NCBI GenBank assembly: GCA_964486505.1
Contig: CAZAMC010000003.1
Coordinates: forward strand, 139,120-203,119
Direction: 5' to 3'
From: an uncultured Gammaproteobacteria bacterium
GTDB lineage: Bacteria > Patescibacteriota > Patescibacteriia > PEXW01
Length of the DNA stretch: 64,000 nt
Shown piece after piece: positions 4,164 through 63,041 of the stretch. Position numbers and translations under genes: made by a program. The stretch's first letter is position 1. The number at the start of each line of letters is the position of its first letter. The notes below the pieces were generated by a model. That model saw only the letters and a list, made by a program, of their open reading frames with translations, had not been told where the DNA came from and made no database searches.

Positions 4164-4181
4164 CCCGCGTCATGTATATTT

Positions 4182-4595
4182 TTAGACGCTGGAATTTCCA
4201 GGATGTGCCATCAGCCGCCGTGCCACCATAATGCACGTTCCAGCATCATTCATGATTAGTCCGTGCCGCGCAACCTGCTTGATGATGTCTGCCGATTCCG
4301 CGCCCGGCTGGAACCACATTTTCTGAATGCCCAGGCGTGCGGCTTGCTCCACTACCTGCAACCCCACCGCGGCGGGCACAACGACAATGACGACATCCGG
4401 TTTCCACGGTAGCGAGCCAAGATCGGGGTAGCAGGGAATGCCAGCGACCTCTCTGTACTTTGGATTTACCCCAACCACGGGCATGCCCGCGCCGTGTAAG
4501 TCCTGCAAGACGCGAAACCCATACTTCGATGTGTTGGTCGTGGCGCCGACCACCGCGTACCGGTAACCTGGTTGGAGGAATGCTTGCGCATCCAT
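4182..4595 (-). CDS. CoA-binding domain protein (YccU/YneT family)
   Basis: 137-aa ORF with YRYAVVGATTNTSKYGFRVLQDL...VVIVVVPAAVG, the Rossmann-like CoA_binding_2 pattern. Confidence 0.7.
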   Translation of the reverse strand: MDAQAFLQPGYRYAVVGATTNTSKYGFRVLQDLHGAGMPVVGVNPKYREVAGIPCYPDLGSLPWKPDVVIVVVPAAVGLQVVEQAARLGIQKMWFQPGAESADIIKQVARHGLIMNDAGTCIMVARRLMAHPGNSSV

Positions 4596-16150: not shown

Positions 16151-16178
16151 TTTCAAAATGTTCCACGTGGAACATTCT
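16151..16178. promoter_or_regulatory. Conserved element with perfect 14-bp palindrome GTTCCACGTGGAAC (copy 1), upstream of tRNA-Ala(GGC)
   Basis: ttttcaaaatGTTCCACGTGGAACattc; 27 of 28 nt identical to copy 2. Confidence 0.4.
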
Positions 16179-16376: not shown

Positions 16377-16405
16377 TTTCAAATTGTTCCACGTGGAACA
16401 TTCCT
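16377..16405. promoter_or_regulatory. Conserved palindromic element GTTCCACGTGGAAC (copy 2), upstream of tRNA-Ala(CGC)
   Basis: ttttcaaattGTTCCACGTGGAACattcc. Confidence 0.4.
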
Positions 16406-26950: not shown

Positions 26951-28507
26951 ATGACACTTTCATCCGTGGACAACTCCCTCGCTATTTGGTTTTGGCTAGG
27001 ATTCTTACCCGTCGGCACGTTCGGCGGGATGCTCGTCGGGTACTTCGCCCGTAAAGTCTGGGCATCGAAACAAGTCGAAGGCGCTGAAGCGAAACTCCAG
27101 AAAGCTCTGGAGGAAGCGAAGAAGCAAGAACAAGAGCTGCTCTACAAAGCAAAAGAGCGGGCTTTGAAGGTGATTGATGAAGCGAAGCGTGAAGAGGCTG
27201 AGCGTCGGAAGGAGCTGCAGCACCTGCAGTCACGTTTGGAGCAGCGCGAAAGCCAGTTCGACGCAAAACTTCTGCAGATTGAGAAGAGCAAACAGCAGGT
27301 GCAGGAGAAGGAAAACCGCTTAGAGAACATTCGCAAAGAGCTGGAACAAGTGCGTGAGCAGCAGGTGGCAAAGTTGGAGAAGATTGCCGGCCTCTCTAAA
27401 GAGGAGGCGCGCCGGGTGCTCATGGATGCAACCGAGCGGGATATGAAAGACGAACTCATGGAACGCATCAAGAGGTTCCAAGAAGAGTCGGCTGAGGAAA
27501 TTGATAAGCAGGCCAAGAACCTCATTGGCCTTGCTATTCAACGCGTGGCTTCCCCACATACGGCCGAAACCACCACGACCATCGTCAACCTGCCGAATGA
27601 GGAAATGAAAGGGCGCATTATTGGAAAAGAAGGCCGGAACATTAAGACGCTGGAACTCATGACCGGCGTGGAAATTATCGTGGATGAAACCCCAGAATCT
27701 ATCGTCGTGTCGGGCTTCTCGCCCGTACGCCGCCAAGTGGCAAAGCGCACGCTGGAGCGCCTCATGGCCGACGGCCGCATCCACCCCGGACGCATCGAGG
27801 ACGCCGTGGACCAAGCGAAGAAAGAAATTCAACAGGACATGAAGAAGGCGGGCGAAGAGGCAGCCTACGAAGTGGGCGTCGCGGGCATGGATCCGAAGCT
27901 GCTGCTCTTACTTGGCCGCCTGAAGTACCGCACGAGCTACGGCCAGAACGTCTTGCGGCACTCGGTGGAGGTTGCCACCTTGGCTGGCCTCTTGGCCGAA
28001 GAGCTGGGCGCCAACGTGAGCGTGTGTAAGAAGGGTGGCCTTTTGCACGACATTGGCAAGGCGCTTGACCACGATATCCAAGGCACGCACCCGGAAATTG
28101 GCTACGACATTCTGCGCCGAAAGTTCAAGATGCCCGAAGAGGTTGCCTACCAGTGCATCTCCCACCACGAAGACAGCCCCAAAACCCTCGAGGGTGCCAT
28201 TGTGAAAGCCGCAGACGCCATCTCTGGCTCCCGCCCCGGCGCACGCAAGGACAGCATCGAGCAGTACATCCAGCGCTTAGAAGAACTGGAAAAACTGGCA
28301 GCGAGCTTCGAAGGCGTGGAGAAAGCCTACGCAATTCAAGCGGGCCGTGAGATCCGCGTGTTTGTCCGGCCGGAAAAGGTGGATGACTACGCCGCCGTGA
28401 AGCTGGCCCGCGAAGTGGCGAACAGTATCGAGAAGGAGCTGCAGTACCCGGGTGAAATTAAAGTTACGGTCATCCGCGAGAAACGAATTATTGAATACGC
28501 AAGGTAA
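26951..28507 (+). CDS. rny: Ribonuclease Y
   Basis: N-terminal TM, coiled-coil, KH domain (GRIIGKEGRNIKTLE) and HD domain (LLHDIGKALDHD...SHHED), near full-length similarity to B. subtilis Rny. Confidence 0.9.
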   Translation: MTLSSVDNSLAIWFWLGFLPVGTFGGMLVGYFARKVWASKQVEGAEAKLQKALEEAKKQEQELLYKAKERALKVIDEAKREEAERRKELQHLQSRLEQRESQFDAKLLQIEKSKQQVQEKENRLENIRKELEQVREQQVAKLEKIAGLSKEEARRVLMDATERDMKDELMERIKRFQEESAEEIDKQAKNLIGLAIQRVASPHTAETTTTIVNLPNEEMKGRIIGKEGRNIKTLELMTGVEIIVDETPESIVVSGFSPVRRQVAKRTLERLMADGRIHPGRIEDAVDQAKKEIQQDMKKAGEEAAYEVGVAGMDPKLLLLLGRLKYRTSYGQNVLRHSVEVATLAGLLAEELGANVSVCKKGGLLHDIGKALDHDIQGTHPEIGYDILRRKFKMPEEVAYQCISHHEDSPKTLEGAIVKAADAISGSRPGARKDSIEQYIQRLEELEKLAASFEGVEKAYAIQAGREIRVFVRPEKVDDYAAVKLAREVANSIEKELQYPGEIKVTVIREKRIIEYAR

Positions 28508-28642
28508 TGTCTGGAGGGGAACCTTGGACGGTTCCCCTTCCAGCGTCCCGCCGTCGCGGGACTGCCTCCCTTCCCTGGCTGTGTCGCGGCGTCAGTCGTC
28601 GGACAAGCCAAGCTTGAACCTCCTTCTTCCTTGCGACGTTCC

Positions 28643-29422
28643 ATGAAAATACTTTTCATTGGGGATATAGTGGGTAAACCTGGGCGCGCCATTGTGGCCC
28701 AGGTCTTACCGAATCTCAAGAAGGAACTCGCAATTGACGTTGTCATCGCCAACGTAGAAAACCTCGCACACGGCAAGGGTGTAACGCAGAAAACGTGGGA
28801 CGAGGTGCGCCGGGCGGGGGTGGATATTGGCACGGGCGGCAACCACACGGTGAGCAAAGATGATGCGCGATCGCTCTTGGCCGATCCTGCACAGCCACTT
28901 GTACGACCCGCGAACTACGCAGACCTACCCGGCACAGGTGACCGCACGATTACTGTGCAAGGAGCAGAGATTCGCGTGCTCAACCTCGTGGGCCAATCCT
29001 TCATGGATGAATCGGTAGCATCACCCTTTACCACCGCCGATACACTCCTCACCGAAAAAGGCGCGCCCGTAACTATCCTGGACATGCACGCCGAAGCGAC
29101 CAGCGAGAAAGTGGCTATGGGCTGGCACGTTGATGGCCGCGTGAGCGCTGTGGTTGGCACGCACACCCACGTACCAACCGCCGACAGCCGCATCCTGCCC
29201 CACGGCACGGCCTACGTGACGGATGCCGGCATGTGTGGCCTGCGCGACAGCATCATCGGCGTGGACCGGGAGGCCATTATGCCGCGCTTCCTGGGCGGGG
29301 AAAAGCGCCGACATGACATTGCTGAGCACGGCCCTGCGGTTTTCAACGCCGTCCTCATCGAAGTGGATGCACATGGCCATGCCACGAGCATCGTTCGGGT
29401 AGACCGGGAAGATGCGGTATAA
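28643..29422 (+). CDS. ymdB: YmdB-like metallophosphoesterase (TIGR00282 family)
   Basis: MKILFIGDIVGKPGR...NVENLAHGKG...GNHT...GTHTHVPTAD. The conserved rny-ymdB gene order supports the call. The TTG at 28631 is the alternative track start. Confidence 0.85.
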   Translation: MKILFIGDIVGKPGRAIVAQVLPNLKKELAIDVVIANVENLAHGKGVTQKTWDEVRRAGVDIGTGGNHTVSKDDARSLLADPAQPLVRPANYADLPGTGDRTITVQGAEIRVLNLVGQSFMDESVASPFTTADTLLTEKGAPVTILDMHAEATSEKVAMGWHVDGRVSAVVGTHTHVPTADSRILPHGTAYVTDAGMCGLRDSIIGVDREAIMPRFLGGEKRRHDIAEHGPAVFNAVLIEVDAHGHATSIVRVDREDAV

Positions 29423-29464
29423 TGGGAAGTGCGCATTCGCACTGACCGAAAGGGGGTGGCACTC

Positions 29465-29743
29465 ATGAATAAAGCTGAACTCATCGATAAGCTCGCGGAA
29501 AAGGCCGGCTTGAATAAGAAGCAGGTAGAAGACCTGCTCCAGGGTTTTGAGGATACCGTTACCGAGACCATCAAAGCCGGCGGTGAAGTGACGCTCACGG
29601 GCTTCGGCACGTTCCTGGCAAAGGAACGCTCGGCCCGCACGGGTGTGAATCCCCAGAATCCCACAGAGAAAATCCAGATCGCCGCGGTCCGCGTGCCGAA
29701 GTTCAAGGCCGGCAAGTCCCTCAAGGACGCGCTGAAGAAGTAA
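29465..29743 (+). CDS. hup: HU family DNA-binding protein
   Basis: MNKAELIDKLAEKAGLNKKQVEDLL...TLTGFGTF...R.ARTGVNPQN...I...VPKFKAGK; RBS AAAGGGGG upstream. Confidence 0.85.
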   Translation: MNKAELIDKLAEKAGLNKKQVEDLLQGFEDTVTETIKAGGEVTLTGFGTFLAKERSARTGVNPQNPTEKIQIAAVRVPKFKAGKSLKDALKK

Positions 29744-30159: not shown

Positions 30160-30317
30160 CCACATGGCAATGAAACAGTAAGCCCTCAGGATCATCTGGG
30201 GGTTTTCCATATCCACCCTTGCCTAATCTGTTGCTGCTCTATACAATGCTCACGCATGGGAGCACCACGGAAGAATAGATGCGGATTTGGAAAAATTGAA
30301 TAAACCAGAATTCTTGT

Positions 30318-30393
30318 GGGAGCATAGCTCAGCTGGTAGAGCAGACGCCTCTTAAGCGTACGGTCGGGGGTTCGAACCCCTCTGCTCCCACCA
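30318..30393 (+). tRNA. tRNA-Lys (anticodon CTT)
   Basis: GGGAGCATAGCTCAGCTGGTAGAGCAGACGCCTCTTAAGCGTACGGTCGGGGGTTCGAACCCCTCTGCTCCCACCA: cloverleaf, U33-CTT-A37, encoded CCA. Confidence 0.9.
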
Positions 30394-30545
30394 CCTCATT
30401 TCGCGGTTACAGTTCCGCGTGACGCGCTTTCGCGCATCCCGCTGCACCGTTCCCGCGAAGCCTCGGTCTACCTCGCAAACCCGTGCTCGTCCCGCGAGCG
30501 GGTCTGCGCTTCGTGTTTGCGAGGGCCCCAGAGAAATCTTGAAGT
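30394..30545 (+). repeat. tRNA-linked structured spacer repeat, copy 1
   Basis: ...tttcgcgg...cgaagcctcg...CTCGCAAACccgtgctcg...GTTTGCGAGggcccca; shares blocks with copy 2 and its long hairpin shows compensatory changes between copies. Confidence 0.45.
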
Positions 30546-30576
30546 ACAGTAAGGGGCGTGGTAGGTTTGTTTGTAC

Positions 30577-30652
30577 GCGCCCGTAGCTCAATGGATAGAG
30601 TACATGGCTTCGGACCATGGGGTTGGGGGTTCGAGTCCCTCCGGGCGCACCA
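30577..30652 (+). tRNA. tRNA-Arg (anticodon TCG)
   Basis: GCGCCCGTAGCTCAATGGATAGAGTACATGGCTTCGGACCATGGGGTTGGGGGTTCGAGTCCCTCCGGGCGCACCA: cloverleaf, anticodon TCG. Confidence 0.9.
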
Positions 30653-30800
30653 GCTCGTTTCGTGCTTCACCCTCCGTGACCGCACGGTTGTTTGGTCACT
30701 GCGGGTTTTGCACGAAGCCTCGCTGAACCCCGCAAACCCGTGCTCGCCTTCGGCTCCGCTCCTGCTTTGCGGGGACCCCAATGCTACTTAAGGCACACAT
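30653..30800 (+). repeat. tRNA-linked structured spacer repeat, copy 2
   Basis: ...tttcgtgc...cgaagcctcg...CCCGCAAAcccgtgctcg...TTTGCGGGgacccca. Confidence 0.45.
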
Positions 30801-30850
30801 CCCTCCGGGTGCATTAGCTCGATGAACGAGCATGCGTTTTTACTAGTATT

Positions 30851-37110: not shown

Positions 37111-39231
37111 TTATTGCTCCTCCCAGCTCAACGTCTCGTACTGCCCCGTGGTGGGGAAATCAGGCGGCGGGGCGTAACTCAAGTTCGCATCGAAGATAAG
37201 GTCACGCAAGCAGTACCCCGAATTGTTATACTGGCCACCCCCACAATCAAACAGATTGTAGCCGGTCCAGGCAAAACCGTACCGTTGGTTCGTTGCAATC
37301 GCTCCAAAGTTCGTTAGCTGGGCGCGCTTGCGGTACTCCTGGCACGTTGTCCCGCCATCTGGATTTTGGCTCTGCGTGCAGGTGTCGGTGGTCACGCAGG
37401 TATCACCGGACGTACAGGGCCCCGTACTCGTCGTCACGCAGGTGTCGGTGGTCACGCACGGCCCAACGTCAGGCGCGCTCGAATCACACGTCCCAAAACC
37501 GGTACAGTGCGAATTCTGGGAGCACCCCCGATTATGGTCACCGGTACACCAACCGTTGCACCGCGCGTTCGTCGTGCACGAACGAGTTGGATCATTCTGG
37601 CAGTAGTTGCGGCAGTTGGTGTTCGTCGTGCACGCGCGCGTGGGAAACGCGTTGCAGTAGTTAATGCAGTCCCCGGTGACCGTGCAGGCGCGGTCGGTGT
37701 CCGTGCTGCACTTGTTGTTGCACTGAGCGTCGGCCGTGCAGTTGAGCGTGGGCGTGGCTTGGCAGTAGTTTGTACAGTCGCCATTCACGGCACAGGATCG
37801 TGCGGGGTTGCCCACGCAAATGCCGCCGGTGGGGTAGAGTTGGAAGTTCGCATTGTTCGTCGAGGTCGTGAAGCCTGCCCCGTAGTACGGTCGGCCCACC
37901 CGCCCGTTCTGAGCAATGAGGGCGGCGTCAATGCGAATGTCATTCTCGCTAAAGTACCCAACGAGAATGTTGTCCTGCGCGATGAGCCCAATAACGTCGC
38001 CACCGCTCGTATCGCCAACCGGCGTATACGTGAGGTCCTCGTTCAAGTAGATGTTTGCGCGGCCCGATGCAAGCGGCTCACGAGCGGCCACGATAGTGAG
38101 CCGAGAATTATCAACAGCCCCGTCAACCCAGAGATCGTCTTCCACGAAGATAATGCCATTTGCGGGCAGGTCTACGCCCAGGGAAGAGCCGCCGTTGTAG
38201 GTAAAGGCCGCCTGGTCATTCGCCCGGGTGCCCACGGAGTGTGACGACTGCACGCAGGTTGCCCCCGACGAACACTGGCTACTCTGTGTACAGCTGGTGT
38301 TGAAATCATTTGAACAGTACCCAAAGTCACGCCACGTCCCGCTGGCGTTGTACTGGCAGCGTAGCTGCGCATTCACCACGCGCATGTCAACCTTGCCATC
38401 GGTACGGAGCGTGAGGTGGTACCCTTGCCCACCGGATGGGAGCAGACGTATGCCGCTGGCAATAGCTTTGGTCTGCAACGCCTGCAAGTCCGCGGTGATA
38501 TTGGCGAAATCTACGTAGTCAGCCTGTACCTGCCGGCCCGCTTCAAAAACGTCGGGGCGGCTAGCAATTGTGGCCGGCGGCGCGGCGGGTGGAATGGGGT
38601 CGGTGGGGGCTATGTGTGTATGTACGCCCAGCTCGTTGCTGCCGGTGTGGTCAGGATCGTCGTAGCTATACCGGTACGACGTGACGAGATTATGTGCCAA
38701 ACCGTCAAACCGGATGCCGCCATTGCTGTGTATAGGACCAAATACTTCGGTACCGACGCCGAAGCGCATATCGGCATTCGCCACGACCGCCCACTTGGTG
38801 AATGAGGGGATCCCTTGCCGCACAACCACGGTGCGTGCGCTCGCCGGCCGATTGGTGAGCTGTCCAGTGGAGGTAATGGTTACAACCGTTGACCCCGAAG
38901 GGGGTGGCGCGATATCCAGGGTAAACGTGCCAATCACATTCCCGGTGGTGTCACGGTACTGGTGCACGTAGGGTCCCGTCGTACCCGTGCCATCTTGGAA
39001 ATCATCGGGCACGTGGGCAAGGTGCCACCGGTAGTACTCTACGCCTGCTTCGGCAATCTGAAATGCGCGCTCGCGTTCTACCCGAAATTTACTCGCCGCG
39101 TTCTGGGTGATGATGAACTGGAGGGCCAGCATACCGAGTGTGACGAAAAGTCCGGTGATAACCAGAATGCTCACGAGCATCGAGCCGGAGGACTGATTCG
39201 TTCGCGGTGAATTGGCGCGCGCACGACTCAT
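37111..39231 (-). CDS. Large prepilin-like protein (GspK/minor-pilin-like N-terminus lacking Glu+5) with Cys-rich tandem repeats
   Basis: N-terminus ...QSSGSMLVSILVITGLFVTLGMLALQ is a class-III-signal-like hydrophobic segment. C-terminal region holds 7-8 repeats of C-x5-C-x3-C (...CTNYCQATPTLNCTADAQCNNKCSTDTDRACTVTGDCINYC...). 706 aa; last gene of a three-gene operon. Confidence 0.6.
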   Translation of the reverse strand: MSRARANSPRTNQSSGSMLVSILVITGLFVTLGMLALQFIITQNAASKFRVERERAFQIAEAGVEYYRWHLAHVPDDFQDGTGTTGPYVHQYRDTTGNVIGTFTLDIAPPPSGSTVVTITSTGQLTNRPASARTVVVRQGIPSFTKWAVVANADMRFGVGTEVFGPIHSNGGIRFDGLAHNLVTSYRYSYDDPDHTGSNELGVHTHIAPTDPIPPAAPPATIASRPDVFEAGRQVQADYVDFANITADLQALQTKAIASGIRLLPSGGQGYHLTLRTDGKVDMRVVNAQLRCQYNASGTWRDFGYCSNDFNTSCTQSSQCSSGATCVQSSHSVGTRANDQAAFTYNGGSSLGVDLPANGIIFVEDDLWVDGAVDNSRLTIVAAREPLASGRANIYLNEDLTYTPVGDTSGGDVIGLIAQDNILVGYFSENDIRIDAALIAQNGRVGRPYYGAGFTTSTNNANFQLYPTGGICVGNPARSCAVNGDCTNYCQATPTLNCTADAQCNNKCSTDTDRACTVTGDCINYCNAFPTRACTTNTNCRNYCQNDPTRSCTTNARCNGWCTGDHNRGCSQNSHCTGFGTCDSSAPDVGPCVTTDTCVTTSTGPCTSGDTCVTTDTCTQSQNPDGGTTCQEYRKRAQLTNFGAIATNQRYGFAWTGYNLFDCGGGQYNNSGYCLRDLIFDANLSYAPPPDFPTTGQYETLSWEEQ
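37366..37700. repeat. Direct DNA repeats encoding the Cys-rich modules
   Basis: cacgcaggtgtcggtggtcacgca occurs twice (about 37375 and 37436), with many related copies (gtcaccaccgacacctgcgtgac family). Confidence 0.5.
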
Positions 39232-47121: not shown

Positions 47122-48777
47122 CTAGGAAATTTCCTCGCGCTTTTCCTTAAGGTAACTAAACCACTCGTCAACGGCCTCCACGAACATCTTGAACGGTGCT
47201 TCGATAATGAAATCCAGGAAGAAAACAATGAAATTCACTTTCGGCACCTTCTTGGAGAACCACTGCCCTAAACGCAGGATCGGCAGGGAGAATGACGAGA
47301 GGAGAAGCAAAAATAAGTTCTCCCGACGATCGCGAAGGGTGAGCTCTTGAGCGAGACCCCGCACGCGCGTGCCAAACAGTGAGATAACCGAGAGGAAGAA
47401 AATAAAGACGACGATGGAAAGCCAGTTGAACTGCAAGGCGGTGAGGCCCCAGACAATGGCGCCAAAGGTGACAACGAAAGTCGCCAGGTAGAACAGGTAA
47501 AAGAAGAACGAGCGCAGTTTGCCCCGGGGCCGGGGTCGGAGCCGAGCGCCGAAGATTTCTCGCGGCGTGGTGGGACTCACAATTTCCTGCACAGCTTTTA
47601 CCACGAGCGCCGTATTCTCCTTACCAGGCAAGCGGGCGGAGAGAGCAATGGTGAACATGAGCACCGGGTGGAAAATGCTGTTGATGTAGATTGGCATGAG
47701 CGCCCGCTCACGCAGCACGAAGACTTCGTACGGCAACTCTATCGCCAGCGCCAGCATCATCTTGGTGATGAAGATGTAGATAATGCTCCGAACCGAGGTG
47801 CGGCGTAGGCGCGTCCGGGCCGTCTTCAGCTTGCTCTTCATGGCCTCCTCAACCGCTTCCTGCAGGGTAGCGGGATTCTGCAGGATGGCGTTGGCTTCCT
47901 GGGCGCCTTTCTCGCGAACTATGTCAGCCAAAATGAGAAACGGGATTGTGTACCGACGACAGATGACGAGCAGGCGTTCGGAGAGAGGATGGTTAATGCG
48001 CTCTTCAATGGACTCAACAAGCTTTGGAAATTTCTCTCGCACCTGTTCGGTAACGGCGTGATTGGGGTGCTCCCACTCGGGGAAGGCCCACTTGAAAAGG
48101 TGGTAACGGAGCACAGCGTCATCGCTCTTTATGAGCGCTCGGTGAATTGCCAAGTACACGAGTACATCTTGCTCCTGGCCAGCCGGCACGCTTTCGGGAA
48201 GTACGAGATTTGAACGAATCGTAGCGTACATGACTTCCACCAGGGCATCTTGCCGCGTACTGGGTGACAGCCGTTCTTCTAAATCGGCAGAAGCCACGCT
48301 GAGAATCCAACGAATATGCCGGCGGTCTTCCGGGTTCGTGCGCCGAAGCTGAAGGTGGTCCAGGAGCGCCAGGTACCGGTCCACGTAATTTTGGACGACG
48401 GCCACAAGTGTCTCAGGCAAAGCATTGTTGGGCAGGTACCGGCCACGAATGAGTTCGTAGATGAGCAGCCGAGCATCGACCATGGAACGATTCTCAACCA
48501 AGTACCGCCGCCGGAGAATGCGCTCAATGGCGTTCCGCCGCAACAGGTGCTCCTCATTGAACTCAATACTGTTGCGCAGCTTCTCGTAGAAGTACGCCAT
48601 CTTGCCAATGACTTCGTTGAGCTTAATGCGGGGCAAGCCTGGCGGCGCCTCCAAGTTCGGCAAAGGCTCTGCATAGCTCTGGAGGAGCTTCAGGGCGCTT
48701 TTCGGGAATGGGGAGCCTTCGGTCATATGGGTATCTCTATTGTAGCCGAAACCTACCACGTCGACGATGGATGACAA
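47122..48777 (-). CDS. Hypothetical protein, N-terminal ~330-aa helical domain + C-terminal multi-TM domain (551 aa)
   Basis: Long ORF with good coding composition but no RBS; 5-6 TM helices in the last 220 aa; no family recognised. Confidence 0.5.
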   Translation of the reverse strand: MSSIVDVVGFGYNRDTHMTEGSPFPKSALKLLQSYAEPLPNLEAPPGLPRIKLNEVIGKMAYFYEKLRNSIEFNEEHLLRRNAIERILRRRYLVENRSMVDARLLIYELIRGRYLPNNALPETLVAVVQNYVDRYLALLDHLQLRRTNPEDRRHIRWILSVASADLEERLSPSTRQDALVEVMYATIRSNLVLPESVPAGQEQDVLVYLAIHRALIKSDDAVLRYHLFKWAFPEWEHPNHAVTEQVREKFPKLVESIEERINHPLSERLLVICRRYTIPFLILADIVREKGAQEANAILQNPATLQEAVEEAMKSKLKTARTRLRRTSVRSIIYIFITKMMLALAIELPYEVFVLRERALMPIYINSIFHPVLMFTIALSARLPGKENTALVVKAVQEIVSPTTPREIFGARLRPRPRGKLRSFFFYLFYLATFVVTFGAIVWGLTALQFNWLSIVVFIFFLSVISLFGTRVRGLAQELTLRDRRENLFLLLLSSFSLPILRLGQWFSKKVPKVNFIVFFLDFIIEAPFKMFVEAVDEWFSYLKEKREEIS

Positions 48778-50487: not shown

Positions 50488-51957
50488 TTACCGACTGTCA
50501 GGAGCAACCGCTGGGGCGTCCACTGCGGCCGATCCTTCGCGGGCGGGCAGAATGGTAGTCTGCTGATCTAGCACCGCCGTGACGAGCGGCACCACGATTG
50601 CGGTGCGGTAGAGTTGCTCACCCTGTGGCGCTTTGGTAATGGGGAAGACGAGCGCAGGAATGAGGTACTCGGTATTCGTCTGCTCTATCTGGTAACGGCT
50701 GGGGTAGTAGCCCAGGGTGGGTGTACCGACCTCCACCTGTACCTTCTGCACGTTCTGATCGGTGATGGTCGAGCCGTACATCCCGCCTCGCTTCACCACG
50801 TCCAGCACCTGTGCTGTATCACTAATCAATGGGTACGCCGACGACTCGTACTGCAAACTCGTGAGGTTATTCACCGATGTCACCCGGTTGAGCGTCAGGT
50901 CAATGTCCACCGTGAGGCCCATGGGGTAGCCATTCTCGTTGACGACCGCCGTACCATTGACAACCAGCGGGTATACCACCTGCACGCTCTGCACGTACCC
51001 CAGACCGGCCTTCACCGACGTTTCACCGTAGCCCAAGAAGTACTTCGGCACTGCCGGCGCGCCATATGCGCTCCGAGGAATACCGTACTGATCCAAGAAG
51101 GCGTTCGCTGTGGCAATCAGCTGGTCGTCGCTCGGCAGCGTCGGCCCGCTGTTTACATTCGCCACCGCCTCGCGCAGCGGCTGCGTCCAGCGCTCCCAAT
51201 TCTGGTAGAGCCCAATGGATCCGTCCCGCAGGTCAATGCTCACTGCGTACCCTTGGTCCTTGTCCTCGGCGAGCGCAATTTGCTGCACCGTAAGCTGAGA
51301 GAACTTCTCCAAGTCCACGAGCCCGAGGTTCGCGCTCTGCACAATTGCATTGAGCGTGCTGCTCGGCAGCTGATTGGTGCGCTTCAGTACGGAAGCCGTG
51401 GGAATGGCGAACTGCGAACCGGTGTACACGTACACGTAGGTTTTGGCCGGCACCGGCGCAATGAGCGATGACGGAGCACTAGAGTCAGCCATGGACTTAA
51501 CGGACGACGTGCTGCCACCTGAGCCCAGCCCTTCCCCTAAGCGTGCTGATTCCTGCGCCACCGGGTTGCTACTGAAATTTCCAAAAGCGCCGGCGTCACG
51601 ACTCGTCACCGCTACCCGTGGGGCAGTGGCACCGTCGTCGGTCGCGATGGATGCTGGCTCAGTGCGCGTGACGTATGCGTAGGTACCAATACCCACAACG
51701 GCCAAAGCGAACACGCTGAAGAGGGCGTAAGAAAACTTGCGCATAGTGAAGAAGGGTGAAGAGTGAGCGGGGGAATGGCGCGCCTCACGCGCTGCAAGCT
51801 GCTGACGCATCTGGTCACGAAATGCGGGGTCCAGGTGCGCGTCGGGTTTGGTTGCCAAGAGTTTCTGGATGATAGGCACGAGCTCGGCCTCGCGCTCGCG
51901 GAGTGACGGCTCCACGGCGTAGAGGTCGGCGAGGATGTCTTGCAGGAGATCAGGCAT
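50488..51957 (-). CDS. Putative anti-sigma factor (N-terminal cytoplasmic domain, single TM, large extracytoplasmic domain)
   Basis: 8-nt overlap with the upstream ECF sigma gene; TM at KFSYALFSVFALAVVGIGTYAYV; about 390-aa extracellular domain. Confidence 0.6.
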   Translation of the reverse strand: MPDLLQDILADLYAVEPSLREREAELVPIIQKLLATKPDAHLDPAFRDQMRQQLAAREARHSPAHSSPFFTMRKFSYALFSVFALAVVGIGTYAYVTRTEPASIATDDGATAPRVAVTSRDAGAFGNFSSNPVAQESARLGEGLGSGGSTSSVKSMADSSAPSSLIAPVPAKTYVYVYTGSQFAIPTASVLKRTNQLPSSTLNAIVQSANLGLVDLEKFSQLTVQQIALAEDKDQGYAVSIDLRDGSIGLYQNWERWTQPLREAVANVNSGPTLPSDDQLIATANAFLDQYGIPRSAYGAPAVPKYFLGYGETSVKAGLGYVQSVQVVYPLVVNGTAVVNENGYPMGLTVDIDLTLNRVTSVNNLTSLQYESSAYPLISDTAQVLDVVKRGGMYGSTITDQNVQKVQVEVGTPTLGYYPSRYQIEQTNTEYLIPALVFPITKAPQGEQLYRTAIVVPLVTAVLDQQTTILPAREGSAAVDAPAVAPDSR

Positions 51958-54999: not shown

Positions 55000-55275
55000 T
55001 TAGAGGGAATCAGTCGTTTCTTCCTGCGGCGTAACCGTAGGCTCGTTCGGATTGAACACCTTTTGCAAGCCTTTGCCAAGCCCACCGCTCATGAGCAGGA
55101 AGGCCAGGATGATAAGGAAAACGCCGACAAGCTTGTACATGAGACGCGTACCGCCATCACTGCCCAGGTGTTGCTCGGCCCACTCAATGCGGCCCAGGTT
55201 GTTCATGAGCCATTCCGACTTCCAGATGATGACGAAGCCAATGGCGATGACGATGATACCAACGAGGTATTTCAT
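55000..55275 (-). CDS. Small two-TM membrane protein (91 aa)
   Basis: Start chosen at MKYLVGIIVIAIGFVII; second TM at LVGVFLIILAFLLM. Confidence 0.4.
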   Translation of the reverse strand: MKYLVGIIVIAIGFVIIWKSEWLMNNLGRIEWAEQHLGSDGGTRLMYKLVGVFLIILAFLLMSGGLGKGLQKVFNPNEPTVTPQEETTDSL

Positions 55276-55419
55276 ACAGTTGATTCTACCACGAGGGGTC
55301 CCCGCAAAGTTGGCACGGAACAAAGTGAGCACGACTTTGCGGGGCAAAGCGAGGCTTCGTCCGTAGGACGGTGGGGGTCTGCGAACGCGGACACGCGGAA
55401 CTCGATGGACGAAACGAGC

Positions 55420-55496
55420 TGGTGGGCAACGTAGGAGTCGAACCTACGACCTTCTCGGTGTAAACGAGACGCTCTAACCAACTGAGCTAGTTGCCC
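55420..55496 (-). tRNA. tRNA-Val (anticodon TAC)
   Basis: Reverse complement is GGGCAACTAGCTCAGTTGGTTAGAGCGTCTCGTTTACACCGAGAAGGTCGTAGGTTCGACTCCTACGTTGCCCACCA: 77 nt. Confidence 0.9.
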
Positions 55497-55685
55497 AAAA
55501 TACTGCTGCCTTCGATGTAAACCCGCCTCGACTCGCGGCTTTTTCGACGCGAGGCGGGCGAGACGCTCTATCCGGGGCAGCGCCGGACGCTACGCACACT
55601 CGCGTCCGTCGGCGCTCTCCCGCCGTACGGCGGGATCGCTGCTGCCCGTTCCACCTTCGGTGAAACCCAACTGAGCTAGTTGCCC
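55497..55685 (-). pseudogene. Decayed tRNA-Val-derived pseudo-copy (5' acceptor/D-arm fragment + D-stem/anticodon-loop fragment with inserted hairpins, no T-arm)
   Basis: Minus strand reads GGGCAACTAGCTCAGTTGGGTT-(~95 nt)-ATAGAGCGTCTCG-CCCGCCTCGCGTCGAAAAAGCCGCGAGTCGAGGCGGG-TTTACAT..., directly abutting the intact tRNA-Val 5' end. Confidence 0.4.
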
Positions 55686-61956: not shown

Positions 61957-62031
61957 TGGTACCCCCGGCAGGAGTCGAACCTACATCTTGGGCTTAGAAG
62001 TCCCTTGCACTATCCGTTGTGCTACGGGGGC
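61957..62031 (-). tRNA. tRNA-Arg (anticodon TCT)
   Basis: Reverse complement is GCCCCCGTAGCACAACGGATAGTGCAAGGGACTTCTAAGCCCAAGATGTAGGTTCGACTCCTGCCGGGGGTACCA: cloverleaf with a weak anticodon stem (two non-canonical pairs), U33-TCT-A37. Confidence 0.8.
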
Positions 62032-62066: not shown

Positions 62067-63041
62067 TCAATCTTCGTCCTTCTTCTCTTTCTTCCCTCTC
62101 CTATTGTGGAAGGCTTTGTACACCTCACGCAGCTGCTGGTTGGTGACGTGCGTGTAGATCTGCGTGGTGGTGATACTCGCGTGGCCGAGCATGGATTGCA
62201 CGGATCGAATATCCGCGCCGTTCATCAATAAATCGGTGGCGTAGCTGTGGCGCAACGTGTGCGGCGTGATGCGCTTGGTAATCCCTGCGGCTTTGGCGTA
62301 GTGCTGCACGATGCGCTGAATAGACCGCGGCGTGAGGGGCTTGAAATTCTCGGCCGAGCGTTTCATAGCCCGGTCGTGACGCAAAAACATCCACTCCTCA
62401 TCATCACTGCGCTGCTTGAGGTACTCGCCCACCCAGTGCCGCGCGTTGTGGCTGAGGAATACCACACGCAGTTTGCTGCCTTTGCCACGCACGGTGAACT
62501 CATCTTTCTCTAGGTTCACCTGGTCCTTCTTCAATCCTGCCAGCTCCGACACGCGCAAACCGGTGGAGAAGAGCAGCTCCAGAATTGCCTTATCACGAAT
62601 CTGGACGAGGTTCGGTTGATCGGTTTTCATTGGCGCTTCCAAGAAGCGCTCCAAGTCCGCCCCTTCCATAAAACTCACCTGTCGTTCTTGTTGCTTGGCG
62701 AGCTCTACTTTCTCGGATGAGAGCGTCGTAACGTCCCGTTTGGCTAGGTACTTCAGGAAGGCGCGCAGGGCAATGAGGTGGTAGTTGCGCGTGCTCGCTT
62801 TGAGCAGCTCCTTCTGCGGGTTGACCAGGCGATTAAGGTACAAACGGTACTGCCGAACTTTCTCCGAAGTAATGTCTTTTGGATCCTGCAACTTGCCCCA
62901 CGCCAAGAACCGGCGGAGGTAAAAGTCGTAATTCTTCACCGTGAGCGGGGAAACGTTCTTCTCGATTTCCAAGTACTCCAAAAATTCGGTGAGGAGCTTG
63001 GAGAGTTGGGGAACAGCCATAGCGCGGATATTGTACGACAC
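62067..63041 (-). CDS. Tyrosine site-specific recombinase, XerC/XerD family
   Basis: N-terminal SAM-like domain (LTVKNYDFYLRRFLAWG) and catalytic R...HxxR...Y motifs (GLRVSEL, HTLRHSYATDLL, GHASITTTQIYTHV). Confidence 0.85.
   Translation of the reverse strand: MSYNIRAMAVPQLSKLLTEFLEYLEIEKNVSPLTVKNYDFYLRRFLAWGKLQDPKDITSEKVRQYRLYLNRLVNPQKELLKASTRNYHLIALRAFLKYLAKRDVTTLSSEKVELAKQQERQVSFMEGADLERFLEAPMKTDQPNLVQIRDKAILELLFSTGLRVSELAGLKKDQVNLEKDEFTVRGKGSKLRVVFLSHNARHWVGEYLKQRSDDEEWMFLRHDRAMKRSAENFKPLTPRSIQRIVQHYAKAAGITKRITPHTLRHSYATDLLMNGADIRSVQSMLGHASITTTQIYTHVTNQQLREVYKAFHNRRGKKEKKDED

Follow-up and report, generated by a model that had tools for sequence, protein, structure and literature searches.

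A structured repeat family that begins directly behind the CCA ends of tRNA genes in Patescibacteria, a possible CCA-specific insertion element

We describe a new RNA or repeat family, absent from Rfam and from the literature that we found, whose copies start at the base following the CCA end of tRNA genes and share a covarying fold of two hairpins. As to its nature, we judge the chances to be about even that it is a family of non-autonomous, CCA-end-specific insertion elements, which would be transcribed as a tRNA 3' trailer and cut off at the CCA/G junction.

Copies in the window and their position at tRNA ends

Nine tRNAs, all with CCA, are encoded in the window, i.e. the whole stretch of 64,000 nt that was analysed (ARAGORN and Rfam), and three of the nine, for Lys, Arg and Val, carry the element; the Ala-Ala-Arg tRNA operon at 16 kb is without it, according to a covariance-model search of the window. 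The covariance model, R1, was built from 25 full copies aligned with MAFFT, full copies being the 31 that score above 100 bits. A preliminary description had reported two copies of a spacer element of ~150 nt, behind tRNA-Lys and tRNA-Arg, between 30394 and 30800. Both copies are real, and their aligned ~130 nt hold the shared ordered blocks that had been noticed (TTTCG, TCCG.G, CGAAGCCTCG, CGCAAACCCGTGCTCG and TTTGCG.GG.CCCCA); the range does contain them but also spans the tRNA-Arg gene, the window elements are shorter than had been claimed, at about 128-137 nt each, and a third copy, on the minus strand after tRNA-Val, had been missed. The features are the following.

30219..30247, plus strand: promoter-like site upstream of tRNA-Lys (TTGCCT, 17-nt spacer, TACAAT), by consensus match alone
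30318-30393, plus strand: tRNA-Lys(CUU) with encoded CCA (ARAGORN, Rfam)
30394-30530, plus strand: copy 1 of the element, after tRNA-Lys (model R1, 113.6 bits; fold z = -3.7)
30393-30467, plus strand: hairpin 1 of copy 1, including A76 of the tRNA and the conserved TCATTTCG / CGAAGCCTCGG junction
30468-30470, plus strand: linker of copy 1
30471-30524, plus strand: hairpin 2 of copy 1, CCTCGCAAA.../...TTTGCGAGG
30525-30530, plus strand: tail of copy 1, GCCCCA
30577-30652, plus strand: tRNA-Arg(UCG) with encoded CCA (ARAGORN, Rfam)
30653-30780, plus strand: copy 2, after tRNA-Arg (model R1, 124.3 bits; fold z = -4.1)
30652-30724, plus strand: hairpin 1 of copy 2
30725-30727, plus strand: linker of copy 2
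30728-30774, plus strand: hairpin 2 of copy 2, CCCCGCAAA.../...TTTGCGGGG
30775-30780, plus strand: tail of copy 2, ACCCCA
30800-30813, plus strand: degenerate repeat of the tRNA-Arg 3' end, 20 nt past copy 2 (TCCCTCCGGGTGCA matches TCCCTCCGGGCGCA in the gene)
30817-30841, plus strand: terminator-like hairpin and T-run, GCTCGATGAACGAGC ATGCGTTTTT
55420-55496, minus strand: tRNA-Val(UAC) with encoded CCA, a lone tRNA (ARAGORN, Rfam)
55294-55419, minus strand: copy 3, after tRNA-Val (model R1, 123 bits; core-pattern match)
55420-55348, minus strand: hairpin 1 of copy 3
55344-55300, minus strand: hairpin 2 of copy 3
55299-55294, minus strand: tail of copy 3, ACCCCT

Judging by its match to consensus, the promoter-like site is likely the start of a transcript with copies 1 and 2, and the terminator-like hairpin is likely the end of that tRNA-Lys/Arg transcript, so that the elements would not be its terminator. 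Intrinsic termination was rejected on the anatomy of the element too, hairpin 2 being followed by ACCCC and a purine tract with no U-tract, and the terminator-like site lying further downstream. The tract following copy 1 (GAGAAATCTTGAAG...) is also present in a relative that has no element there, and is therefore pre-existing spacer and not part of the element. Past copy 2, the degenerate repeat at 30800-30813, whose score of 11 was equalled by 1 of 32 controls, is a displaced tRNA 3' fragment or a target duplication. Copy 3 folds only weakly better than its shuffles (z = -1.9), and a small ORF with its start at 55275 comes after it. A 33-nt core pattern (CGAAGCCTCG N6 CNCGCAAA NN CGTGCTC) has three matches in the window, against 0.00 expected from shuffles.

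Across the family, CCA directly precedes 30 of the 31 full copies. Twenty-two of the 31 begin 0 nt past the CCA of an intact tRNA, all in tRNA orientation, and their host tRNAs (Lys, Ala, Val, Gly, Asn, Ser, Glu, Arg, Leu, Met and Asp) comprise ~15 anticodons or identities; the remaining full copies mostly lie behind a tRNA 3'-end fragment of 10-23 nt or behind another sequence ending in CCA. The last base of the tRNA takes part in the fold, A76 of tRNA-Lys pairing into the base of the element's first helix. In a tRNA array at locus L009 the spacer is taken up by the element but for ~10 nt ahead of the next tRNA, and in each of the four genomes examined the tRNA-Arg(UCG) gene beside pilT is occupied by a family member.

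Several other features of the window were recorded. A cluster of rny (RNase Y), ymdB and hup (26951-29743) lies just upstream of tRNA-Lys/Arg, in an order kept in L031, L033 and L034, and one candidate for the nuclease acting on the trailers is RNase Y. A perfect palindrome, GTTCCACGTGGAAC, stands at 16160-16173 and at 16386-16399, ~35 nt upstream of each tRNA-Ala gene (0.01 expected by chance), occurs three times in the syntenic locus L014 and may serve tRNA genes as operator or promoter element. A gene for a XerC/D-like tyrosine recombinase (62067-63041, minus strand) lies directly upstream of tRNA-Arg(UCU) (61957-62031), with no visible link to the element. Three large ORFs have no Pfam match (37111-39231, 47122-48777 and 50488-51957, all on the minus strand; 706, 551 and 489 aa).

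Fold, family and hosts

The consensus fold was obtained with RNAalifold on the MAFFT alignment, an alignment not fitted to structure, and comprises 36 pairs in two hairpins. Standard pairs fill 94.7% of the cells, against 35-48% with slid partners, 20 of the 36 pairs change on both sides and none of 500 shuffles reaches the covariation score, which bears out the earlier proposal of selection on RNA structure. The compensatory change that had prompted this proposal, in the closing hairpin, is present (CCTCGCAAA/TTTGCGAGG versus CCCCGCAAA/TTTGCGGGG, U-A versus C-G) and recurs family-wide, with C-G in 19 copies and U-A in six. At the base of hairpin 1, A76, G+1 and C+2 are paired with a conserved GCU, followed by a conserved UC/CUC internal loop and by the helix GUUUCG/CGAAGC, which is invariant and has a U-G wobble in 25 of 25 aligned copies; in the distal part, three pairs and the distal stem covary freely. 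Beyond a linker of 3-4 bases, hairpin 2 consists of a stem, CCYCRYRAA/UUYRYGRGG, with two further covarying pairs; its internal loop (CGURCUC opposite YCCGYKCC) is conserved and its tip variable, and on its 3' side come a single-stranded ACCCC and then a purine tract of 5-7 nt.

The invariant U-G wobble is a pair on the tRNA-sense strand alone and points to that strand, which is rich in C and poor in A (C 38.6%, G 26.4%, A 12.5%), with conserved unpaired positions that are mostly pyrimidines. Apart from this wobble, the count of A-C mismatches (25 stem cells) against G-U pairs (15 cells) is ambiguous as to the functional strand, and the excess of A-C suggests that many copies may be drifting. 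The presence of invariant blocks beside covarying stems points to a sequence-specific function, more than a selfish repeat alone would explain.

The preliminary description had proposed a covariance-model search of relatives, and in this search model R1 detected 45 real copies in loci from related Patescibacteria, with lengths of 125-150 nt across the family and just the three copies in the window; covariation holds on the alignment of 25 copies. Of the two identities suggested at that time, a small ncRNA family agrees with these copies and with the lack of any element match in Rfam 15, at the gathering score or at E up to 10, in the window and three related loci, where tRNAs were the only matches of substance. 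The other, a spacer or processing module of a poly-tRNA transcript, proved too narrow, the element being found also behind the lone tRNA-Val, behind tRNA 3' fragments and behind the end of a protein gene, and is probably not the main story. The minus-strand ORFs overlapping the element (30407-30781 and 30352-30618) had been suspected to be artefacts and are so, because they cross tRNA-Arg and the lengths of the copies ignore codon frame; model R1 is usable for annotation and would keep gene callers from false ORFs there. Our search of the literature found no described tRNA-trailer repeat in Patescibacteria.

The core pattern identified three loci (L001-L003), from one MAG, plus one chance coding match in a set of species-representative genomes, and 24 loci in metagenomes, mostly in a single one of groundwater type (Ga0172379), plus a Hainich groundwater assembly. 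L004, in an Acidimicrobiales coding sequence, and L027 were chance pattern matches and were dropped after inspection. Two pattern scans of IMG/VR returned no copy, and a phage origin was rejected on these empty scans. The copies come from separate assemblies (NCBI MAGs, JGI, ENA), and the PilT homologues of the window gene are labelled Parcubacteria, Kerfeldbacteria or Patescibacteria by their sources; the host lineage of the family is Patescibacteria, Kerfeldbacteria/Parcubacteria-like. The gene content of the window is ordinary chromosomal (infB, rny, ymdB, hup, pilT, fabH-like, sigma-70 and ABC transporters).

Other repeats occur at tRNA genes in the same loci. A sister family starts with CGCGTCATC directly after CCA (L005 811-939, L014 2374-2514, and L024/L034 3714-3870 and 4459-4571); it has a different hairpin 1 and the same ending (linker, CCCC...GGGG hairpin, ACCCC), and in some of its copies hairpin 2 is plain and AT-rich, without the conserved internal loop. 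Directly upstream of the real tRNA-Val gene lies a degenerate partial duplicate of it (55497-55685, minus strand), in which nt 1-19 are found at 55685-55667, the D-stem 3' and anticodon-stem 5' strands at 55570-55559 and the anticodon loop TTTACA at 55521-55516; it is interrupted by a hairpin (55666-55648), by a 73-nt GC-rich element (55647-55575) and by a 37-nt hairpin (55558-55522). The GC-rich element, GGGCAGCAG...GCGCTGCCC, recurs at L023 916-993 and L025 139-214 and has no Rfam match; in L023 and L025 it is enclosed by a hairpin, the stem of which is formed by a tRNA 3' fragment pairing with the reverse complement of a tRNA T-loop/T-stem. Repeats of yet another, third type, GGGTGCGACCCATCGRGAGCA...CGGCCCCGNAGGGGC, are represented in the T-loop of a duplicated, CCA-ending tRNA 3' fragment (L031 3998-4127, minus strand); this type stands in the position of copy 1 behind the tRNA-Lys of L031 and also occurs after copies in L025, L015, L016 and L026. 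At L034 4104-4460, an AT-rich ORF of 88 aa with a GIY-YIG nuclease domain (4175-4441) stands between tRNA-Lys(CUU) and a 17-nt repeat of its 3' end, after which comes a variant of the element; such a nuclease cassette, lying at the same CCA junction, is a possible clue to how these sites are opened.

Dispersal, turnover and competing explanations

The most similar copies sit behind different tRNAs. A Lys-CUU/Ala-UGC pair is 97.7% identical, another pair 95.6% and an Asn/Glu pair 93.4%; identity between copies that share a tRNA but not a genome is 58-81%, the median over all pairs is 64%, and each window copy is nearest (74-78%) to a copy behind another tRNA elsewhere. Within the nearest pairs, similarity extends from directly after CCA to ACCCC and is then lost, and subtypes of hairpin 1 and hairpin 2 are found in differing, recombined combinations. 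In the closest relative, L031 (PilT 96%, coding flanks 78-83% nucleotide identity, tRNAs 88-97%), an unrelated unit and no element follows the orthologous tRNA-Lys, and behind tRNA-Arg stand 117 nt of other sequence and next a variant or degenerate copy, its hairpin 1 intact and its hairpin 2 reduced. Two further relatives have, at the tRNA-Arg(UCG) beside pilT, other subtypes or the variant starting with CGCGTCATC.

Some copies are flanked by direct repeats of the upstream sequence (22 nt in L006, 12 nt at L010 992 and 14 nt at the window tRNA-Arg), although clear flanking duplications are limited to 4-5 copies, vary from 12 to ~31 nt and are in some cases entangled with other repeat types. 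In L006 the copies are stacked, in the order tRNA-Arg, copy, 21 nt, 22-nt repeat of the tRNA-Arg 3' end, copy. The 5' half is missing from four to five copies, against 0-1, and no clear case, shortened at the 3' end; the shortened ones are all distal in stacks. One copy (L010 3606-3746) occupies a non-tRNA site, 10 nt beyond the stop codon of an 826-aa ORF on the opposite strand, and is flanked by an imperfect repeat of 23 or more to ~31 nt that ends in ACCA, both repeats encoding the C-terminus of the ORF (GQAEKKAKRK and IGQAERKARR, each followed by the stop). Three flanking repeats at +19 to +22 suggested a fixed element end ~20 nt beyond ACCCC; this was rejected as a general rule because near-identical copies diverge at ACCCC and part of the 20 nt in L006 is another repeat type. 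These properties are those of a dispersed, mobile repeat, which fits better than a fixed host module.

Thus, in the explanation to which we give about even chances, the element would be co-transcribed from the tRNA promoter as a 3' trailer, as its tRNA orientation and its start at the base after CCA indicate. The base of hairpin 1 would stack across the UC/CUC loop onto the GUUUCG/CGAAGC helix and clamp the CCA/G junction, and the conservation of this junction helix, including A76, suggests a cut exactly there. Such an endonucleolytic cut would leave the tRNA with its CCA end already in place, so that the insertion would be harmless, and would also set free a stable RNA of two hairpins. Mini-III-type cleavage, or RNase P mimicry through hairpin 2 and ACC, is conceivable too. 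Spread and turnover would reflect recurrent insertion at CCA ends together with recombination or gene conversion among the copies; in the process, older copies and the duplicated 3' fragments of tRNAs would be pushed downstream. A scan of ~40 of the ~66 window ORFs found no transposase, reverse transcriptase or nuclease gene linked to a copy; near-identical copies at different tRNAs could reflect gene conversion between fixed copies instead of new insertion, and a family member at tRNA-Arg(UCG)/pilT in four genomes would also fit a retained function.

A function of this kind is the core of the first alternative, which we regard as rather unlikely, namely a cis-acting module beneficial to the host, in which the trailer would direct or protect tRNA 3' maturation, with a nuclease reading the junction helix and cutting after CCA, or would insulate the tRNAs of an operon. 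Many copies would then exist as many tRNA genes need the module, and gene conversion would keep them alike. The position fixed at CCA+1 in tRNA orientation, the pairing of A76 into the first helix, junction sequences that stay invariant while distal stems covary, the filled spacer of the L009 array, the occupancy of tRNA-Arg(UCG) by pilT in all four genomes, and a window with RNase Y and no obvious RNase E would all suit such a module. However, only three of the nine window tRNAs carry it and the Ala-Ala-Arg operon does without, as does the orthologous tRNA-Lys of the nearest relative; copies also stand behind tRNA fragments and the end of a protein gene, stacked and shortened copies occur, and, outside the invariant wobble, A-C mismatches outnumber G-U pairs, which suggests drift in many copies.

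By analogy with ribozymes found next to tRNAs, the element might instead represent a new class of self-cleaving ribozyme that would cut at CCA/G, freeing the tRNA 3' end and defining the 5' end of the element RNA, a reading that could coexist with mobility and that we consider unlikely. It would account for an element that starts exactly at the tRNA end, theta ribozymes lying within 5 nt (PMC10879173), for the invariant junction nucleotides (UC/CUC loop, GUUUCG/CGAAGC with its U-G wobble, GCU to A76-G-C) and for the second conserved internal loop, in hairpin 2, through which two loop-bearing domains could dock. It sits poorly with the lack of a match to known ribozyme families even at E up to 10, with the failure of an HDV-like topology, the 3' ACCCC strand having no partner and the helices being all nested, with shortened copies that retain the 3' half without the junction strand, and with variants that have a different hairpin 1 or a simple hairpin 2.

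A family of trans-acting sRNAs that exploits tRNA promoters and processing is improbable in our view. The C-rich, A-poor sense strand with its mostly pyrimidine conserved unpaired positions would allow the C-rich CUC loop, the CCGCGCC loop and the 3' ACCCC to pair with G-rich targets (e.g. ribosome-binding sites) or to bind a protein, the fold is stable and tRNA processing could set the ends; dozens of diverged paralogues per lineage are nevertheless unusual for a regulatory sRNA, and turnover at orthologous loci, together with copies in non-expressed contexts, argues against a fixed regulator.

Equally doubtful to us is an RNA-mediated route of mobility, drawn by analogy, in which the element would be a bacterial counterpart of SINE/R2-type elements, co-transcribed with the tRNA, released at CCA/G, possibly by its own junction, and recopied into DNA by a reverse transcriptase priming or switching templates at CCA 3' ends. 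Retroposition would explain why the junction at CCA is exact to a single base, why duplicated fragments of tRNA 3' ends begin in the T-loop, why target duplications vary in length and some copies are shortened at the 5' end, and why terminal inverted repeats are lacking and the RNA fold is strand-specific. Measured against SINEs, the family has variable duplications in 4-5 copies, four to five 5'-shortened copies, all distal, and a purine tract of 5-7 nt with no long A-tail; variable duplications, 5'-shortened copies and absent terminal repeats are compatible with retroposition without demonstrating it.

Integration targeted to tRNA genes classically leaves direct repeats of tRNA 3' ends. We nonetheless hold it highly improbable that the elements are scars or att-site remnants of integrases targeting tRNA gene 3' ends, since, although such repeats (T-loop to CCA) do occur and the tyrosine recombinase gene at 62067-63041 adjoins tRNA-Arg(UCU), neither cargo nor an integrase is present at any of the three window copies, the recombinase gene lies ~6.6 kb from the nearest one, ~15 tRNA species and one protein gene precede the element where one attP would fit one target, and covarying helices are not expected of att scars.

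If the reading as CCA-end-specific insertion elements is true, small structured elements use the 3' ends of tRNA genes in this Patescibacteria lineage as landing pads, and at least three families of them appear to ride tRNA transcripts. It would add a new target specificity for bacterial repeats and a clean natural case in which a host RNA-processing site renders insertions harmless. The maturation of tRNA 3' ends in these reduced genomes is poorly understood, and the invariant CCA/G junction is a well-defined candidate for a new self-cleaving ribozyme or for a tRNA 3'-end nuclease recognition site.

Relation to known systems

Theta ribozymes are minimal HDV-like ribozymes that adjoin phage tRNAs in gut Caudoviricetes, and a role in the removal of 3' trailers has been proposed for them (PMC10879173). 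Like the element, they are structured RNAs that start a few nt from a tRNA 3' end in tRNA orientation, and at 0 nt the 22 of 31 strong copies lie inside the ~5 nt from the tRNA 3' end that applies to theta ribozymes. In contrast to these short double-pseudoknot RNAs, the element has ~130 nt and two nested hairpins and resides on Patescibacteria chromosomes. An HDV-like or theta fold, a nested double pseudoknot of P1, P1.1, P2, P3 and P4 whose 3'-terminal strand pairs immediately behind the 5' strand of P1, was rejected, as every supported helix is nested within one of two separate hairpins; the 31-copy alignment offers the 3' ACCCC no conserved G-rich counterpart, and HDV-type covariance models gave no match to the element at E up to 10.

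A second likeness is to R2 and its non-autonomous derivatives, which sit in 28S rRNA genes and are transcribed along with the host RNA gene, self-cleavage at the junction having been shown for the R2 5' ribozyme (PMC3414825). The two would have in common site-specific insertion in a highly expressed RNA gene, a co-transcript, a 5' end defined by the junction, an important 3' structure and shortened non-autonomous copies. R2 is eukaryotic, uses target-primed reverse transcription and has an HDV-like 5' ribozyme, whereas for the element neither a reverse transcriptase partner, among the ~40 window ORFs scanned, nor a match to a ribozyme family was found. The reverse transcriptase of the Neurospora mitochondrial retroplasmid prefers 3' CCA ends for initiation and template switching (10.1101/792986). 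This comparison is one of mechanism by analogy, the host here being bacterial and the ~40 window ORFs scanned including no reverse transcriptase, and it provides a known route to an exact junction between an RNA ending in CCA and the 5' end of another RNA, as seen in 30 of 31 copies.

Classification as a MITE was rejected: the longest terminal inverted match has a mean length of 4.1 nt in the copies and 4.3 nt in shuffles, and instead of a short target duplication of fixed length a few copies have flanking repeats of 12, 14, 22, 23 to ~31 nt. With MITEs, REP/BIME, ERIC, Correia and RUP repeats the element shares that it is short, non-coding, multi-copy and foldable, as are these repeats, which are often co-transcribed with adjacent genes and, like the element, vary in presence among relatives (PMC2229807, PMC3184786). 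Unlike them, it combines strict orientation and single-base precision at tRNA CCA with an asymmetric two-hairpin fold and a strand-specific wobble. The family belongs with the bacterial structured dispersed repeats and the tRNA-linked RNAs, and is set apart by its unusual single-base target at tRNA CCA ends.
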